DNA of 64,000 nucleotides from Promethearchaeota archaeon (GTDB taxonomy: Archaea; Asgardarchaeota; Lokiarchaeia; Sigyniarchaeales; SOKP01). This document shows, piece by piece, positions 23,094 to 29,604 of the stretch. Position numbers and translations under genes: made by a program. The notes beneath the pieces were generated by a model. It did no database searches and had not been told where the DNA came from. It worked only from the letters and a program-made list of their open reading frames with translations. Positions within the stretch are counted from its first letter, which is position 1. Every line of letters starts with the position of its first letter. The stretch covers positions 32,001 through 96,000 of the forward strand of contig JAHPZJ010000028.1 in the NCBI GenBank assembly GCA_019058245.1. Direction: 5' to 3'.

Positions 23094-24128
23094 TTAAACG
23101 TGATATCTTTGATTAATTACGGTTTGGAATTGAATATTCGAGCGGGGGCGCTCTTGATAACCACCTCGCTTTGAAACCAAGTAAAAATGTGCCATATTTT
23201 TCTCATGTACTAGAGTAATTCCACGCCATTTGTTATTCTTAGAAGTAAATTCTACTACATTTCCAAGTGCGATTCCCTCTCTAGTAGTATATTTGAAACT
23301 TAATCTTGCTAAAATCTTTAGAAGTTCATCATGAAAATCAACGAGCTTCTGCTTAGGGTTATCCTTAAATCTTAATGCTTCAATGGAAAAAGCTTTAAGA
23401 ATATCTTTACTCATTGTTTTCCATACTTTAGGATTTGCATAAAACTCTATACCTATAAATTCTCCATTAATAAACACTGCAATTCCGCATTGATTTTCTA
23501 TATTTTTAAAATGCTTAACAAGGTCTCCAGTCTGTTTTTCAGATTCTTTTGTCATTTCAAGGTAACTTTGAGTTGGAGCAATAGATGGGAGATAATTCAT
23601 TTCGTATCTATGTGATTGAATCTCATTCCATACTGCGCCTTGTCCTGCAGCAGAAATAGCTTCATATGCTACATTAGGGTGGAGCCTAGTACTTGATGAT
23701 TTGAAACCTCGACTTTTATTATAAGTCCATCTTGATTGTTCCACGCATTTAGCAGGGATTGTATATTTTTGTTTATCAATTCCAGGATTTTTGCTGACTA
23801 AATTTTGTTTTCCTCCTTTATGTAATAAAATTGGCTCCCATATGGTTCTATCTTGTTTTCCACCATGAACTGTCATTCCAAATGGAATTAGTATTTGTGT
23901 ATCACTTTTATTTATAACTTCCAAATGACCAACAGATTCTGTTTCAATAATCTCGATTAGGTCAAGTTCTTCTGCTTCTTTAATACTAATGAATTCTATA
24001 AATTTGTCATCTTGAACAATGATGGGGATAATAGTCATATTTTTATAAACTTGAGGAGTATCTAATTTAAGATAACTTAAAGGGTTTTCAAATATGGTTT
24101 TTACAATTTCTATACTTTCATTTTTCAA
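23094..24128 (-). CDS. ARPP-1 (DUF6569)-like domain protein
   Basis: LEVINKSD..ILIP.G..V.GGKQDRTI, IPAKCVEQSRW, QGAVW, QCGIAVFINGE pattern. Confidence 0.7.
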   Translation of the reverse strand: MKNESIEIVKTIFENPLSYLKLDTPQVYKNMTIIPIIVQDDKFIEFISIKEAEELDLIEIIETESVGHLEVINKSDTQILIPFGMTVHGGKQDRTIWEPILLHKGGKQNLVSKNPGIDKQKYTIPAKCVEQSRWTYNKSRGFKSSSTRLHPNVAYEAISAAGQGAVWNEIQSHRYEMNYLPSIAPTQSYLEMTKESEKQTGDLVKHFKNIENQCGIAVFINGEFIGIEFYANPKVWKTMSKDILKAFSIEALRFKDNPKQKLVDFHDELLKILARLSFKYTTREGIALGNVVEFTSKNNKWRGITLVHEKNMAHFYLVSKRGGYQERPRSNIQFQTVINQRYHV

Positions 24129-24523
24129 ACATAATCATCCTCCTTTTTATTATTTTTGTTTTTTTCCTCTTCATAGAGAGGATTTATAAATTTATTAACA
24201 ATATTTTTCCCATTTTTGGTAAGTTCTACTCCATAAGAGACTTTGAGTTTTCCATCTTTAGCCACTCCATTAATTCTAGTTCCTTTTTCTTGTGGAATTT
24301 CTGTTTTTGACATTTCTTCTGTGTGAGTTTGTATCAATCCTTCTCTTTTAAGAGCATTTAGATGATAATTTAAGCTCTGTTTTTTCATGCCGAAATCATC
24401 TGCTATCTTTTTAGGTCTTTGAGGATTTTCTGATAGTTCTTTTAGGATATCTGCTCTTATAGGATTTCTAAATACAAGCCCCACTTTATCAAAAATGGGT
24501 TTCTTTTTTTTTTTGTTTTTCAT
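24125..24523 (-). CDS. ArsR-family winged-helix transcriptional regulator
   Basis: NPIRADILKEL...IADDFGMKKQSLNYHLNALKREGLI; 4-nt overlap with the downstream gene. Confidence 0.85.
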   Translation of the reverse strand: MKNKKKKKPIFDKVGLVFRNPIRADILKELSENPQRPKKIADDFGMKKQSLNYHLNALKREGLIQTHTEEMSKTEIPQEKGTRINGVAKDGKLKVSYGVELTKNGKNIVNKFINPLYEEEKNKNNKKEDDYV

Positions 24524-26456: not shown

Positions 26457-27878
26457 TCAAATTTCAATTGGATTATAATTTTCTGTTAATTCTTTACCAC
26501 GTTCAATATAAAAGAATTTGGCATGTTTTGGGTTAAGTTTTTGCTTTAATATCTCAAGAGCTTTTAATCCTTTCGGAAATTCATCACAAATAAAGAAATC
26601 TACACTAGCATATCCATGTTCTGGCCAAGTATGAAGAGCAGCATGGCTAGTTTCTAATATTGCTACCACACTATAACCAAATGGATGGTAAATATGATTA
26701 TAGATATCGATAATAGTCAATTCTGCAGAATTGAGTGATTCTAAAAATGCTTGAAATATGAATTTATTATCCATAAGTAGATCTTTAGATTTAAATCGCA
26801 TTTCTCCCGTGAAATGATATCCAATGGGGCGAAAAGTTAAATCTCTTCCATTTTTAAGTTCAGAAGTGTAGAGAGGTTGTGATTCGTATTTATAACTTAA
26901 TTGTGTATTTGTAGCCATTACTGATTGTAAATAATAAAGATGGCTAAATTGCCCTATAATACTGGCACCTTTGTAGTGGTTAAAATTAGGAAGCATCTCT
27001 TTAAGAATAAATCCATGATCTAATATTGATAATTGTAAATTTAAAGTATCATTAGGAGGTTTATTTCCAAAACATAGAAAACATTTCTTTCCAATGATAG
27101 GGTATAATGTTCCATTAATATTAATGTATGATTTAAGTACTTCTCTAGCTCTCTTTAAGAATAAACGTAATCCCTCATTTGTATAAGGAGGATCCATTAT
27201 AACAACATCATAATTATTTTGAATATCTTTAGGACTTGGATTCTTTAAATCGTGGTGAACAACATTAAAATTTTTTAATGATTTATGTAAAATAACATTG
27301 GAAAGAAAATCTAAAATTCGCTCATCGACGTCTAAAACAGTGATCTCTTTTGCTAATCCGGTTAAAGCAACTGCAATCGAAGTGGCGTCATCATCACCAA
27401 GAAAAATTATTTTTCTTCCTTCAATTTCACCTTTTTTAATTAAATAAAAAGTTCGTTTTAAAACCGTCATTAAATTTGCATGCGATTGATCAAGAGCATA
27501 TTCTGCTTTTGGTCGTTTCTTTAGATGCGTTTCTATCTGCTTTAGATACAAAAATTCATCTGGTATTTCATCTAAATCAAAATTAATTTGATTAGGAAAA
27601 GGATCATAATCAAATGTTAAATTTAAATTCTTCATTACCCATTTTTTTCCTTTCTCCCCGAGAAAAGTTTTATCAGCAATTAAACCAGCCTTTACTAACT
27701 CCCCTCTAACAGCCGCAAGAGTAGGAATTGCAATTCCAGTTTTTTGAGACACTTTTTTATTTTTAAGAGTAGGAAAACGATACATAGTTAAAAGTATTGA
27801 TCTAATTCCTTCGATACCCTCATCTAAATGTGCTTTATTAGCTATATTTATAAGTAGTTCTTCCGTTTCAGAATTCAT
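26457..27878 (-). CDS. Fusion of a BpsA/DUF43-like aminopropyltransferase with a C-terminal pyruvoyl AdoMet decarboxylase (SpeD/SpeH) domain
   Basis: N-terminal HTH; RP...LDQ, FLGDDDATS, LDVDERIL, HDL..P, DPPYT; C-terminal GYH...GYSVVAILETSHAALHTWPEHGYASVDFFIC. Confidence 0.85.
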   Translation of the reverse strand: MNSETEELLINIANKAHLDEGIEGIRSILLTMYRFPTLKNKKVSQKTGIAIPTLAAVRGELVKAGLIADKTFLGEKGKKWVMKNLNLTFDYDPFPNQINFDLDEIPDEFLYLKQIETHLKKRPKAEYALDQSHANLMTVLKRTFYLIKKGEIEGRKIIFLGDDDATSIAVALTGLAKEITVLDVDERILDFLSNVILHKSLKNFNVVHHDLKNPSPKDIQNNYDVVIMDPPYTNEGLRLFLKRAREVLKSYININGTLYPIIGKKCFLCFGNKPPNDTLNLQLSILDHGFILKEMLPNFNHYKGASIIGQFSHLYYLQSVMATNTQLSYKYESQPLYTSELKNGRDLTFRPIGYHFTGEMRFKSKDLLMDNKFIFQAFLESLNSAELTIIDIYNHIYHPFGYSVVAILETSHAALHTWPEHGYASVDFFICDEFPKGLKALEILKQKLNPKHAKFFYIERGKELTENYNPIEI

Positions 27879-28140: not shown

Positions 28141-28977
28141 ATGATGAAAGAATTAAACGATATCGGGCATTATAAGATTATCGAATTCCCAAAAGTGAGA
28201 ATCCCCACTCTAGACTTCCTATCATTAGGAGCAAAAAAACATTATGTCAAAGGCTTAATTGAATTTGATGTAACAGAAGGTAGGAAAAAAATTCGGGAGC
28301 ATGAGAAGAATACTGGACAAAAAATTTCATTTACTTCCTGGCTTCTTAAATGTATTGGACAAGCTGCTAGTGAATATAAAGAAGTTCATTCTATGATGAT
28401 GGGAAAGAATAAGATCATCCAATTTGAGGATGTTGATATTTCGGTTGCTGTTGAGAAAATAGTTGGAGGAATAAGGACCCCTATTCCAATTGTTATTAGA
28501 AAAACTAATAAAAAAACAATTAAACAAATTAATGAGGAAATCAGAAAGGCTCAAGCCGAAGAAACTAGTGAACCAACATTGCTAGGAAACCATAATATGA
28601 AAAAAAAATTAAAAACATATGTGGCTTTACCGAAATTTATTAGAAAATTAATTTTAAAGAGTAAATTTAGAGATCCAAGAAAAATAAAGCAAATTATGGG
28701 AACTATAATAGTTACTTCAGTAGGTATGTTTGGAAAACTTTATGGATGGCCAATACCCACAACTACTCATCCTTTAGCTTTTGGTGTTGGGGCAATAACC
28801 AAAAAACCGGGAGTTATTGAGGATAAAATCGAAATTAGAGAATTTTTAGCAATTACAGTTTTATTTAATCATGATGTGGTAGATGGGGCACCTGCTACTC
28901 GATTTATATCACGACTGGGTGAATTATTAGAAAGTGGATTTGGATTACTTAATTTAGAATCGTTTATTTTCTTTTAA
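28141..28977 (+). CDS. Stand-alone 2-oxoacid dehydrogenase E2-type acyltransferase catalytic domain
   Basis: GTIIVTSVG, FNHDVVDGAPATRF (HxxxDG); no lipoyl domain. Confidence 0.85.
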   Translation: MMKELNDIGHYKIIEFPKVRIPTLDFLSLGAKKHYVKGLIEFDVTEGRKKIREHEKNTGQKISFTSWLLKCIGQAASEYKEVHSMMMGKNKIIQFEDVDISVAVEKIVGGIRTPIPIVIRKTNKKTIKQINEEIRKAQAEETSEPTLLGNHNMKKKLKTYVALPKFIRKLILKSKFRDPRKIKQIMGTIIVTSVGMFGKLYGWPIPTTTHPLAFGVGAITKKPGVIEDKIEIREFLAITVLFNHDVVDGAPATRFISRLGELLESGFGLLNLESFIFF

Positions 28978-29073: not shown

Positions 29074-29604
29074 CTAAGATCTTTTATGGATGTGTGAAAC
29101 TAATTTCAAAAAAAAATCTTTCACACCATTACCTATTTTTGCACTAGCTTCAATATATGCACAGGCCCCAATCATCTTTTTAACATTCTCTGCTTCTTGT
29201 TTTTCAATTATTCTGTTTTTAGAATTTATTAAATCAAGTTTATTTCCAACAAGTACACTTGAGAAATTTCCAAGAACCTTTTCAATTTCTTTTTTCCATT
29301 TTAAAATATGTTCGAATGTTTCCCTCCTTGTTAAGTCAAAAACATATACAATACCCTTTGCTCCTTTATAAAATTCATGTCGTACCCACTTATAGCGTTC
29401 TTGTCCAGCTAAGTCCCATATTTGCAAGGTAAAGGTATCTTTAATATCACGAATTTTAATGTATTTTGCAAAAAAATTAGAACCAATTGTTGAACCGACA
29501 TTTGGGGTAAATCTCCTTTCCAAATACTGGTGAAGTAAAGTAGTTTTGCCTACACTAAAGTCTCCGCATATACATATTTTATAGAAAGGAATTTCTGTAG
29601 TCAA
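29074..29604 (-). CDS. Rab/Ras-like small GTPase
   Basis: G1 GDFSVGKT, G2 TIG, G3 WDLAGQE, G4 GNKLD, G5 EASAK; no C-terminal Cys. Confidence 0.93.
   Translation of the reverse strand: MTTEIPFYKICICGDFSVGKTTLLHQYLERRFTPNVGSTIGSNFFAKYIKIRDIKDTFTLQIWDLAGQERYKWVRHEFYKGAKGIVYVFDLTRRETFEHILKWKKEIEKVLGNFSSVLVGNKLDLINSKNRIIEKQEAENVKKMIGACAYIEASAKIGNGVKDFFLKLVSHIHKRS

Follow-up and report, generated by a model that had tools for sequence, protein, structure and literature searches.

A BpsA-related transferase fused to a pyruvoyl AdoMet decarboxylase in an Asgard archaeon, a candidate one-gene module for aminopropylation

In the window studied here (the whole 64,000-nucleotide stretch of DNA that was analysed, from a Lokiarchaeon and thus an Asgard archaeon), one gene on the minus strand appears to unite two steps of polyamine metabolism, and the question it raises is what its product makes. 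An initial annotation had described it as a BpsA-type aminopropyltransferase joined in frame to a full, self-cleaving pyruvoyl AdoMet decarboxylase (AdoMetDC), implying branched or unusual polyamines. The label assigned by automatic annotation is just 'adenosylmethionine decarboxylase', which hides the transferase half. The features of the gene are the following.

26457–27878, minus strand: whole gene for the fusion protein (ORF; length and start identical in 120 homologues)
27543–27878, minus strand: N-terminal helical, winged-helix-like domain, residues 1–112 (HTH_24, 5xnc alignment, AF2)
26925–27542, minus strand: Rossmann-fold aminopropyltransferase-like domain, PF01861, residues 113–318 (Pfam; PDB 5xnc/2qm3/6j27)
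27387–27398, minus strand: GDDD motif, G161–D164, the dcSAM aminopropyl-binding motif in BpsA (121/121)
27180–27194, minus strand: DPPYT motif, D229–T233, with D229 equivalent to Tk Asp225 and Tyr for the Glu of DPPET (121/121)
26829–26924, minus strand: flexible linker, residues 319–350 (AF2 pLDDT <50 for 323–350)
26859–26873, minus strand: conserved L/I-Y-T-S-E motif in the linker, residues 336–340 (alignment)
26460–26828, minus strand: class-1b pyruvoyl S-adenosylmethionine decarboxylase domain, residues 351–473 (PF02675, TIGR03330, 1tlu/1tmi)
26646–26651, minus strand: predicted self-cleavage site Thr410/Ser411 (aligns with T. maritima E62/S63)
26586–26633, minus strand: catalytic His416 (26631–26633), W-P-E with Pro419, and Cys431 (26586–26588) (121/121)

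The gene is a single ORF of 473 aa plus stop codon, with an ATG start and zero internal stops. The protein begins with a helical N-domain, continues with the Rossmann domain of PF01861 (BpsA_C) and a disordered linker, and ends in a class-1b pyruvoyl AdoMetDC that is complete and whose extent (about 26460–26828) agrees with the 26826–26457 estimated at the outset. The same two-domain architecture was present in the best 120 of 293 relatives, at 59–100% identity. This is far beyond chance and, with PF01861 and a full-length PF02675 both lying in one ORF, the existence of a single fused polypeptide is confirmed. Across the query and these 120 relatives, GDDD, DPPYT, S411, H412, H416, W418-P419-E420 and C431 were invariant (121/121), and both domains look competent and under purifying selection.

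The decarboxylase half, through which the protein would be expected to dimerize, matched AdoMet_dc (PF02675) at residues 355–461 over the full profile (1–107/107; E 1.3e-25, 90.2 bits), and also the NCBIfam equivalog TIGR03330 (SAM_DCase_Bsu; 91.4 bits, cutoff 75.65). It superposed on the T. maritima AdoMetDC (1tlu/1tmi) with a TM of 0.85 and an rmsd of 1.5 Å. The cleavage serine, previously assigned to 26646–26648, is indeed Ser411, aligned with T. maritima S63, and its spacing to His416 (+5) and Cys431 (+20) is identical to that of S63/H68/C83, residues whose roles in AdoMetDC are known (PMC10407285). Since the serine had been placed correctly, autocleavage should, as had been anticipated, keep the transferase joined to the beta chain, with predicted chains of 410 aa (beta) and 63 aa (alpha).

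Compared with the class-1b enzyme of T. maritima (SpeD/SpeH; 1tlu, 1tmi, 1vr7), the domain has the same fold, the same Ser/His/Cys spacing and an H-T-W-P-E stretch with its Pro. It differs in being C-terminal to a transferase, so that the beta chain has 410 aa and not about 62, and in the cleavage dipeptide, which is Thr/Ser instead of the canonical Glu/Ser, the Glu being one position further upstream. Ser411 was found in 121/121 sequences and Thr410 in 120/121, whereas the remaining fused lineages, including sister Asgard clades, are all E/S. Every bona fide AdoMetDC is reported to keep one Pro that the derived arginine decarboxylases (ADC) have lost (PMC10407285); Pro419 of H-T-W-P-E, which we take as that diagnostic residue, was invariant in 121/121.

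For the transferase half, BpsA structures were the best matches in both sequence and structure. The BpsA_C profile (PF01861) covered residues 113–318 with E 4e-43 and 147.9 bits (cutoff 27), the match being limited to profile positions 4–199 of 243, while PF01564, the spermidine/spermine synthase domain, scored just 12.2 bits (E 0.14). The GDDD, DxDER and DPP motifs noticed earlier were recovered at the expected positions (GDDD 161–164, DVDER 183–187, DPP 229–231). GDDD corresponds to the dcSAM aminopropyl-binding motif of BpsA, Gly157–Asp160 in the T. kodakarensis (Tk) enzyme, in which Asp159 and Asp160 are essential (PMC12979288). The N-domain gave a weak HTH_24 match (Pfam, residues 26–67), could be aligned, from residue 51 on, with the corresponding domain of Tk-BpsA (5xnc), and was modelled by AF2 as helices across residues 3–120 (pLDDT about 80–94). 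In the alignment it has no CxxC, a motif that both canonical BpsA and the unfused relatives possess; the latter end in a C4 zinc ribbon, and the fused Asgard forms are without both elements.

The next-best structural matches of the Rossmann domain were METTL5 and PH1948. DPPY is a classic motif of N-methyltransferases acting on nucleic acids or proteins, and here DPPYT is common to the entire subfamily. However, methyltransferase models all remained below cutoff (PF10237, 23.0 bits against 23.2; PF03602, 18.6 against 24; PF05175, 16 against 23), the position of the SAM loop is held by GDDD and not by a Gly-rich loop, and DPPY is the sole (D/N)PP(Y/F) N-methyltransferase feature shared with RsmD, METTL5, PrmC and N6AMT.

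With BpsA itself (EC 2.5.1.128; T. kodakarensis TK1691, 5xnc/5xnf/5xnh; Thermus thermophilus, 6j27), the protein shares PF01861, a helical N-domain plus Rossmann arrangement, GDDD and, of the four acceptor-site residues (Asp225, Glu259, Tyr290 and Tyr316), Asp225 of the DPP (D229 here) and Tyr290 (Y302). In both, the Rossmann domain is followed by a flexible segment. Unlike BpsA, it has DPPYT in place of DPPET, an AdoMetDC fused to it and no N-domain CxxC, and it occurs in mesophilic hosts that have no SpeE. The Glu259 column is occupied by Lys273 (K/R across the clade, often with an acidic residue 3–4 positions on, in a loop whose alignment is uncertain), and the pocket insertion of ~30 residues that carries Tyr316 is absent. 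Also absent is the acidic C-terminal cluster E-x-x-D-D-E-E, replaced by a single conserved Glu340 in L-Y-T-S-E, after which the decarboxylase follows. In BpsA this flexible acidic cluster carries the aminopropyl group. The linker motif (Y337 and T338 in 121/121, E340 in 118/121) aligns with the start of the canonical acidic lid. With Tyr where BpsA has Glu228, Lys in the Glu259 column and no Tyr316 insertion, the acceptor pocket is unlike that of the BpsA enzymes, and polyamine binding is therefore not assured as far as the alignment can tell.

In quick trees, computed with SH-aLRT values and no bootstrap, the DPPYT clade was separated, at SH-aLRT 98–100, from Asgard BpsA of the Tk type (391 bits to 5xnc). 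By this phylogeny the transferase is no orthologue of BpsA and sits in a separate, strongly supported clade. The DPPYT subfamily, which shares the Lys at Glu259, the missing pocket insertion and the missing acidic tail, is large and mostly found outside thermophiles. Besides Asgard archaea, its hosts include Vagococcus, Xenorhabdus, Paenibacillus and Lachnospiraceae, and the architecture is not peculiar to the lineage studied here. What survives of the initial annotation is the fusion and the placement of the serine. BpsA orthology does not, given the separate clade (in the quick trees) and the several missing acceptor-site and lid features; with it go the implication of branched polyamines and, as the subfamily is common in mesophiles, cultured bacteria among them, any signal of thermophily.

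What the enzyme could act on depends in part on its surroundings. The fusion is the only PF02675 gene and the only PF01861 gene in its genome (76% complete). We found no true SpeE in the host genome, in near-complete congeners or in the fused Asgard family f22, and no carboxyspermidine route (nspC/CASDH) in the host or its congeners. The congeners encode PdaD and an agmatinase family, implying that amine acceptors are available, and beside PdaD they carry a DS-family paralogue that may yield homospermidine. This paralogue weakens the argument, which we had considered, that the enzyme acts on diamines because no triamine exists. We also considered spermidine supply to deoxyhypusine synthase (DHS) as a necessary role. 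However, DHS was present in 41/41 genomes of the family and the fusion, patchy even there, in 7/25 sampled genomes, meaning that the fusion is an accessory gene that hypusination can do without.

AdoMetDC has been joined to this subfamily repeatedly. Fusion or adjacency arose at least three to four times: in the Asgard fusion clade, in a bacterial clade that mixes fusions with bpsA-like–speD operons, in a third, divergent clade, and as an N-terminal fusion. In the SpeD-less Asgard family f5 (SpeD in 0/13 genomes), the four sequences examined have GDSD for GDDD; among 150 representatives, 0/9 proteins with a variant GDxD motif were fused, a number too small for a test. It is thus one lineage, f5, that supports GDDD versus GDxD as a possible marker of donor specificity.

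In bacteria, a GNAT gene lies downstream in Vagococcus, Lachnospiraceae, Dysgonomonadaceae, Spirochaetales and one further bacterium; in Spirochaetales it separates the transferase gene from speD. Over its full length, the GNAT of Vagococcus is homologous to an E. faecalis protein described as a 'spermine/spermidine acetyltransferase' (2fl4/9dsb; E 1.5e-20). Other bacterial neighbours include efflux-type transporters and TetR, and such a context (small GNATs, transporters, TetR) is typical of small-molecule metabolism. Among the Asgard loci compared (the window, Loki locus L026 and Hod locus L027), there were no shared neighbours, whether polyamine-related or connected with nucleic acids or translation. 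A divergent acyltransferase-fold gene lies next to the fusion at 28141–28977; it is adjacent in L113 and L115 also, and in tandem in L035 and G049. As a functional partner it is a weak lead, being phyletically uncoupled from the fusion.

The reading that we consider probable is that of a bifunctional, self-processing polyamine synthase that both makes and uses decarboxylated SAM (dcSAM) and has a small amine as acceptor. The C-terminal class-1b AdoMetDC would cut its own chain at Thr410/Ser411, converting Ser411 into the pyruvoyl cofactor and leaving the 63-aa alpha chain held non-covalently on the 410-aa chain (beta segment, linker and transferase). The decarboxylase would then turn SAM into dcSAM, which the GDDD site of the transferase would bind, passing the aminopropyl group to the acceptor, possibly via the linker I/L-Y-T-x-E in the manner of the acidic lid of canonical BpsA. 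Likely starting amines would be those already in the cell, namely agmatine, putrescine and possibly homospermidine. As no SpeE-type synthase, second AdoMetDC or carboxyspermidine pathway was found in the fusion-bearing Asgard genomes, we infer that the fusion could be a self-sufficient one-gene module for aminopropylated polyamines.

Such a synthase might still be a true BpsA-like one at work in a mesophile, aminopropylating the secondary N4 of spermidine to give N4-aminopropylspermidine or N4-bis(aminopropyl)spermidine. The closest structures are consistent with this, as are the retained equivalents of GDDD, Asp225 and Tyr290 and the flexible segment with its conserved acidic residue, and the DS-family paralogue of the congeners could supply homospermidine as a triamine acceptor (PMC10981699). 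We nevertheless regard it as unlikely: the protein falls outside the canonical BpsA clade, its Pfam match stops at position 199 of 243, Lys occupies the Glu259 column, the Tyr316 insertion and the acidic cluster are missing, no SpeE or carboxyspermidine route was found that would provide spermidine, and Asgard lineages with canonical-type BpsA also carry SpeE and a stand-alone SpeD. A small probability likewise attaches to a transferase that uses the dcSAM of its fused partner on something other than a polyamine, such as the exocyclic amine of a nucleobase, a protein side chain or another metabolite. Several observations point this way, namely DPPY and the weak N6-adenine/RsmD/MTS-type N-methyltransferase matches (PF10237 being only just below cutoff), METTL5 and PH1948 as next-best structures, the winged-helix-like N-domain, the terminal zinc ribbon of unfused relatives and a pocket less acidic than that of BpsA. 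On the other hand, the same N-domain occurs in canonical BpsA, whose action on polyamines is proven, and the fused Asgard forms have lost the zinc ribbon and CxxC; the bacterial GNATs (one of them a polyamine-acetyltransferase homologue), transporters and TetR disfavour a macromolecular target, and conserved nucleic-acid or translation genes were absent from the Asgard loci compared. Extended to the whole DPPYT subfamily, the idea would be that of an aminopropyltransferase for macromolecular or other non-polyamine nitrogen, or for a metabolite that is then N-acylated, with no polyamine synthase involved. We think this decidedly doubtful; if true, the repeated capture of AdoMetDC would have given Asgard archaea and many bacteria a one-gene writer for an aminopropyl modification that has so far not been described.

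Alternatively, the decarboxylase may have been neofunctionalized (as in SpeDC/SpeDA) for ornithine or arginine, thus supplying the acceptor and not the donor. Fusions of the SpeD1–SpeD2 (AdoMetDC–ODC) type occur in Desulfotignum phosphitoxidans and Omnitrophica, and in their ODC domains processing at E-T/S, a site matching L-E-T/S here, was proven by S229A (PMC10407285, Fig. S5). Thr410, just ahead of the pyruvoyl Ser, belongs to the four ODC markers, taken from the text of Fig. S5, and the L-E-T-S stretch is similar to I-E-T-S in ODC domains that have been validated (PMC10407285). Yet the other three (Gln, Phe and Tyr) are absent, and the local sequence, A-I-L-E-T-S-H..H-T-W-P-E..A-S-V-D, keeps the S-H and H-T-W-P-E signature of AdoMetDC, including the Pro lost in ADC forms, whereas the ODC domains read Q-L-I-E-T-S-L..G-H-F-A..A-Y-I-D (Q...ETSL...GHFA) and have no H-T-W-P-E. 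The E/S dipeptide of the other fused lineages, the absence from the genome of a second AdoMetDC on which a GDDD-type transferase could draw, and a PdaD that already handles arginine in congeners further argue against this change of substrate, which we judge very improbable. Hardly to be expected, finally, is that one or both halves are catalytically dead, the protein being a plain methyltransferase or carrying its decarboxylase-like domain for structural dimerization. Human spermine synthase, with its inactive AdoMetDC-like domain, offers a precedent (PMC12803844), and in some relatives, 434–445 aa long, the decarboxylase core has diverged (N-S-N...HTW(P/E/Q)E). However, all residues known to be essential are invariant in the protein and its 120 close relatives, and GDDD in place of the Gly-rich loop, with methyltransferase scores uniformly below cutoff, speaks against a methyltransferase.

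Returning to the self-processing polyamine synthase, we compared it with known fusions. Those of AdoMetDC and aminopropyltransferase occur in Ca. Pelagibacter, a delta-proteobacterium and Krumholzibacteria, with animal spermine synthase as a descendant (PMC11107197, PMC12803844). The initial statement that known fusions are SpeE-type held, in that the literature we found describes only these, all with the decarboxylase N-terminal. They follow the same functional logic, a class-1b AdoMetDC in one polypeptide with the aminopropyltransferase that consumes its product, but their transferase is of the PF01564 type, whereas here a BpsA-type transferase is N-terminal and the order is reversed. The coupling is convergent with that of the SpeE-type fusions. 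A full-text search of the published literature returned no description of a BpsA-type::AdoMetDC fusion.

According to a 2026 review, bpsA orthologues are confined to thermophiles; the present gene is one of a large sister subfamily whose hosts are archaea and bacteria of mesophilic habit. If spermidine-type polyamines are indeed made, this would be a third route of aminopropyl transfer, independent of SpeE, and the sole one found in those sampled Asgard genomes that bear the fusion. No archaea are known to be more closely related to eukaryotes, and such a route would bear on how ancestral polyamine and hypusine metabolism is reconstructed. The subfamily is also present in cultured hosts (Vagococcus fluvialis, with orthologue WP_167806534, Xenorhabdus hominickii, Paenibacillus motobuensis and Clostridium faecium), which makes the question of the product directly testable.

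The fusion gene is one unbroken ORF whose product matched, in Pfam, both BpsA_C (PF01861; residues 113–318, E = 4e-43) and, over its full length, AdoMet_dc (PF02675; residues 355–461, E = 1.3e-25). This bears out the two-domain fusion proposed in the initial annotation, which was right down to each detail: the GDDD, DxDER and DPP motifs it named were all found, and its placement of the cleavage serine was exact.

26457-27878, minus strand: fusion gene, single uninterrupted ORF, 473 aa
residues 161–164 (minus strand gene): GDDD motif
residues 183–187 (minus strand gene): DVDER motif
residues 229–231 (minus strand gene): DPP motif
26646-26648, minus strand: Ser411, the cleavage serine

An AlphaFold2 model, predicted from 50 relatives, was confident in both halves (mean pLDDT 84.7), with residues 323–350 forming a disordered linker. 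In Foldseek searches, model residues 1–345 matched the BpsA structures 2qm3, 5xnc and 6j27 at a probability of 1.0, and the C-terminal domain matched Thermotoga maritima AdoMetDC (rmsd 1.5 Å, TM 0.85). The nearest relatives (59–88% identity, equal length, both Pfam domains) come from Promethearchaeota/Lokiarchaeota, Thor-, Hod- and Hermodarchaeota MAGs and are named ‘adenosylmethionine decarboxylase’ in the database, the AdoMetDC part alone being annotated. The host genome (3.09 Mb in 31 contigs, 76% complete) has one PF02675 gene and one PF01861 gene, both of them the fusion.

The decarboxylase half passed TIGR03330, the NCBI curated equivalog model (91.4 bits vs a cutoff of 75.65), and aligned with T. 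maritima AdoMetDC without gaps. Ser411, His416 and Cys431 correspond, with identical spacing, to S63, H68 and C83 of that enzyme, whose equivalents are required in AdoMetDC for processing and catalysis (PMC10407285); all three were kept in 121 of 121 fused relatives. Equally invariant (121/121) was the W-P-E following His416. A proline kept in all bona fide AdoMetDCs is missing from the arginine-decarboxylase derivatives (PMC10407285), and we take this diagnostic residue to be the sole Pro of the H-T-W-P-E core.

The single departure of this core from the AdoMetDC pattern is Thr410, which precedes the serine in 120 of the 121 fused relatives, where AdoMetDCs have Glu; the fusion reads L-E-T-S-H against I-S-E-S-H, with the Glu moved one position upstream. 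The canonical Glu|Ser was found in every other fused lineage examined, sister Asgard clades included. Validated SpeD-derived ornithine decarboxylase (ODC) domains carry Q-L-I-E-T-S-L...G-H-F-A (PMC10407285 Fig. S5), and an S229A mutant identifies this serine as their processing site (PMC10407285), so that self-cleavage at Thr|Ser is proven for the AdoMetDC fold. Of Gln, Thr, Phe and Tyr, the residues that mark an ODC (PMC10407285), the fusion has the Thr alone (1/4). The domain is most probably a functional AdoMetDC with lineage-specific variation at the cleavage site. Self-cleavage at Thr410|Ser411 would split the protein into a chain of 410 aa that comprises the transferase, the linker and the beta segment, and a pyruvoyl-bearing alpha chain of 63 aa, which fits the earlier expectation that the transferase would be left on the beta chain.

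The features that define BpsA (PMC12979288, a 2026 review) are a GDDD motif, whose Asp159 and Asp160 position the aminopropyl group of dcSAM, the acceptor-site residues Asp225, Glu259, Tyr290 and Tyr316 (Thermococcus kodakarensis numbering), and a flexible C-terminal acidic cluster, which carries the aminopropyl group during ping-pong catalysis. Residues were mapped via a canonical Asgard BpsA (391 bits to the T. kodakarensis enzyme) and a 21-sequence alignment. The fusion keeps GDDD, Asp225 (as D229) and Tyr290 (as Y302), but reads DPPYT where BpsA has DPPET after Asp225, and lacks both the acidic cluster and a ∼30-residue insertion with Tyr316. The Glu259 column is occupied by Lys273 (Lys/Arg clade-wide), an assignment that is not firm, the position being part of a loop that often has an acidic residue 3–4 positions further on. 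Where canonical BpsA starts I-Y-Y-D-E-E, the disordered linker of the fusion has L/I-Y-T-S-E (Y337 and T338 in 121/121, E340 in 118/121). In transferase-domain trees, which were quick trees with SH-aLRT support and no bootstrap, the fusion fell in a clade apart from canonical BpsA (SH-aLRT 98–100). The description ‘BpsA-like’ thus holds for the PF01861 family, GDDD, D229 and Y302, but given its separate clade and the several defining features it fails, this half should not be classed as BpsA.

Searching 1.84 billion representative proteins with a profile turned up 8068 matches at E ≤ 0.001; in the best 150 representatives of these, DPPY(T/S) was present in all and GDDD in most.

Forms of the DPPY subfamily
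∼330–350 aa
∼380–400 aa, C4 zinc ribbon at the end
C-terminal AdoMetDC fusion without ribbon (the type found in the window)
C-terminal AdoMetDC fusion, ribbon retained, 501–564 aa
434–445 aa, decarboxylase core diverged
N-terminal AdoMetDC fusion, at least one case

Single-ORF fusions occurred in Heimdall-, Odin- and Hodarchaeales MAGs and, among bacteria, in the cultured Vagococcus fluvialis (109 cluster members), Xenorhabdus hominickii and Paenibacillus motobuensis, as well as in a Lachnospiraceae and a Dysgonomonadaceae MAG. In Clostridium faecium and a Spirochaetales MAG, a zinc-ribbon gene was followed by a separate speD, the gene order being the domain order of the fusion. The wider tree contained one Asgard fusion clade (SH-aLRT 99), a bacterial clade with fusions and operons interleaved (97) and a divergent group set apart (100), and the N-terminal fusion separated from the other fused groups; AdoMetDC has thus been joined to this transferase family at least 3–4 times. 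The confinement to thermophiles claimed for bpsA orthologues in the 2026 review does not hold for the whole family. The 434–445-aa proteins (P0181, P0188, P0245 and relatives) form a separate fused clade with the core N-S-N...H-T-W-(P/E/Q)-E, in which Ser, His and Cys are kept, the His after Ser is lost and the diagnostic Pro sometimes is; their decarboxylase substrate may have changed.

Given the fusion to a competent AdoMetDC, the recurrent coupling and the invariant GDDD, the transferase donor is most likely dcSAM. The unfused zinc-ribbon form was present in 13/13 genomes of Asgard family f5, and SpeD in 0/13; the four f5 sequences examined (L010, L011, L014 and L015) have GDSD, not GDDD. 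These proteins may use another donor, and the pattern fits, in this one lineage, a part for the middle Asp in donor choice.

Polyamine genes were surveyed in 151 genomes of the phylum, with SpeE counted at >165 bits. In f8, f15, f17, f19, f20 and some other families, SpeE was present and SpeD and the PF01861 gene stood alone, the latter often clustered with both. In f1, the family of the window, and f22, the PF01861 gene was fused, SpeD occurred in the fusion only (bar one extra short match in genome G104) and SpeE was not found, matches being methyltransferase noise of 20–33 bits. Carboxyspermidine decarboxylase was absent from near-complete congeners (best match 44 bits vs a 409-bit cutoff), and carboxyspermidine dehydrogenase was not found in four of five. 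SpeE was not found in the Dysgonomonadaceae MAG or C. faecium and was present in the Paenibacillus fusion host. In X. hominickii, whose fusion is TetR-linked, speE is apparently split into two overlapping frames (G151:C79:106975-107516; profile positions 1–82 and 79–181) and either a pseudogene or an error in sequencing could account for this.

The survey also revealed a third PF01861 class, with T-D-S-S-H-C replacing DPP(E/Y), located in speD-speE-X operons (L006:1547-4030, L007 and L008; f19 and f8). Proteins of 677–698 aa with a weak PF01861 core (L019:1031-3456, L020:1285-3806 and L021; f7 and f17) are encoded, at L019 and L020, next to a divergent SpeD-like gene of 130–141 aa, which may be another transferase–decarboxylase pairing.

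The fusion is best explained as a putative self-sufficient polyamine synthase with agmatine, putrescine or another such amine as acceptor: one half would make dcSAM and the other half of the same protein would consume it. Any of these amines could be the one used, with one or several aminopropyl groups added in linear or branched form. Congeners encode pyruvoyl arginine decarboxylase (PdaD) and PLP-dependent decarboxylases, and the genome of the window has an agmatinase-family gene adjoining deoxyhypusine synthase (DHS; G000:C31:29578-31368, outside the window), so amine acceptors are available. In bacteria, a small GNAT gene follows the fusion in Vagococcus, the Lachnospiraceae MAG and one further bacterium, and lies between the transferase gene and speD in Spirochaetales. 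The Dysgonomonadaceae fusion is followed by GNAT and methyltransferase genes, and an MFS transporter is encoded ∼1.4 kb upstream of it; the Xenorhabdus fusion has its start overlapped by a TetR gene and has GNAT and EamA exporter genes near it. In Vagococcus the GNAT is homologous over its full length to the Enterococcus faecalis ‘spermine/spermidine acetyltransferase’ (2fl4 and 9dsb, E = 1.5e-20). This context points to free amines as acceptors. A non-polyamine acceptor is also possible in view of the DPPY motif, a pocket less acidic than that of BpsA, and METTL5 and PH1948 as structural neighbours.

A BpsA-like branching reaction is possible too. DHS-like enzymes produce homospermidine in cyanobacteria and also in Thermus, where agmatine is the starting amine (PMC10981699). 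A second DS-family paralogue occurs in most genomes of the family, beside PdaD in G049 (C25), G150 (C36) and G071 (C52). Together with the DHS–agmatinase pair in the genome of the window, this arrangement suggests that Lokiarchaeia have a DHS-like pathway to homospermidine or one that couples agmatine, through which a triamine acceptor might arise without dcSAM. We also considered the fusion as the sustainer of hypusination, and rejected it: DHS was present in 41/41 genomes of the family and the fusion in 7 of 25 sampled from f1, these counts being of genomes as samples, with relatives non-independent and the window's genome 76% complete. The other 18 (most 90–100% complete) lacked BpsA, SpeD and SpeE altogether; the fusion gene is accessory in its own family.

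We found no published description or test of the BpsA-type::AdoMetDC architecture in the literature. A functional parallel exists in the bacterial AdoMetDC–SpeE-type fusions validated by the Michael laboratory and ancestral to animal spermine synthase (PMC12803844, PMC11107197); since these have the reverse domain order and a different transferase family, the coupling is convergent. The fusion can be tested directly in cultured bacteria.

Two further loci near the fusion, an ArsR-type HTH gene overlapping an ARPP-1-domain gene (23094-24523, minus strand) and a Ras/Rab-like small GTPase gene (29074-29604, minus strand), keep their synteny with it in the closest relative, L113, with no link to the fusion evident at either place. 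Divergent from the fusion gene lies that of a CAT-fold acyltransferase of the 2-oxoacid-dehydrogenase type (28141-28977, plus strand, 278 aa), a stand-alone catalytic domain that lacks a lipoyl domain and retains the catalytic H-D-V-V-D-G. The adjacency recurs in divergent orientation at L113 and L115 and in tandem at L035 and G049 (57–110 nt downstream). Phyletically, the acyltransferase, widespread among Asgard genomes (38/151), is independent of the fusion; in archaea it could take the place of the GNAT partner seen in bacteria, and its position beside the fusion could also be due to chance.
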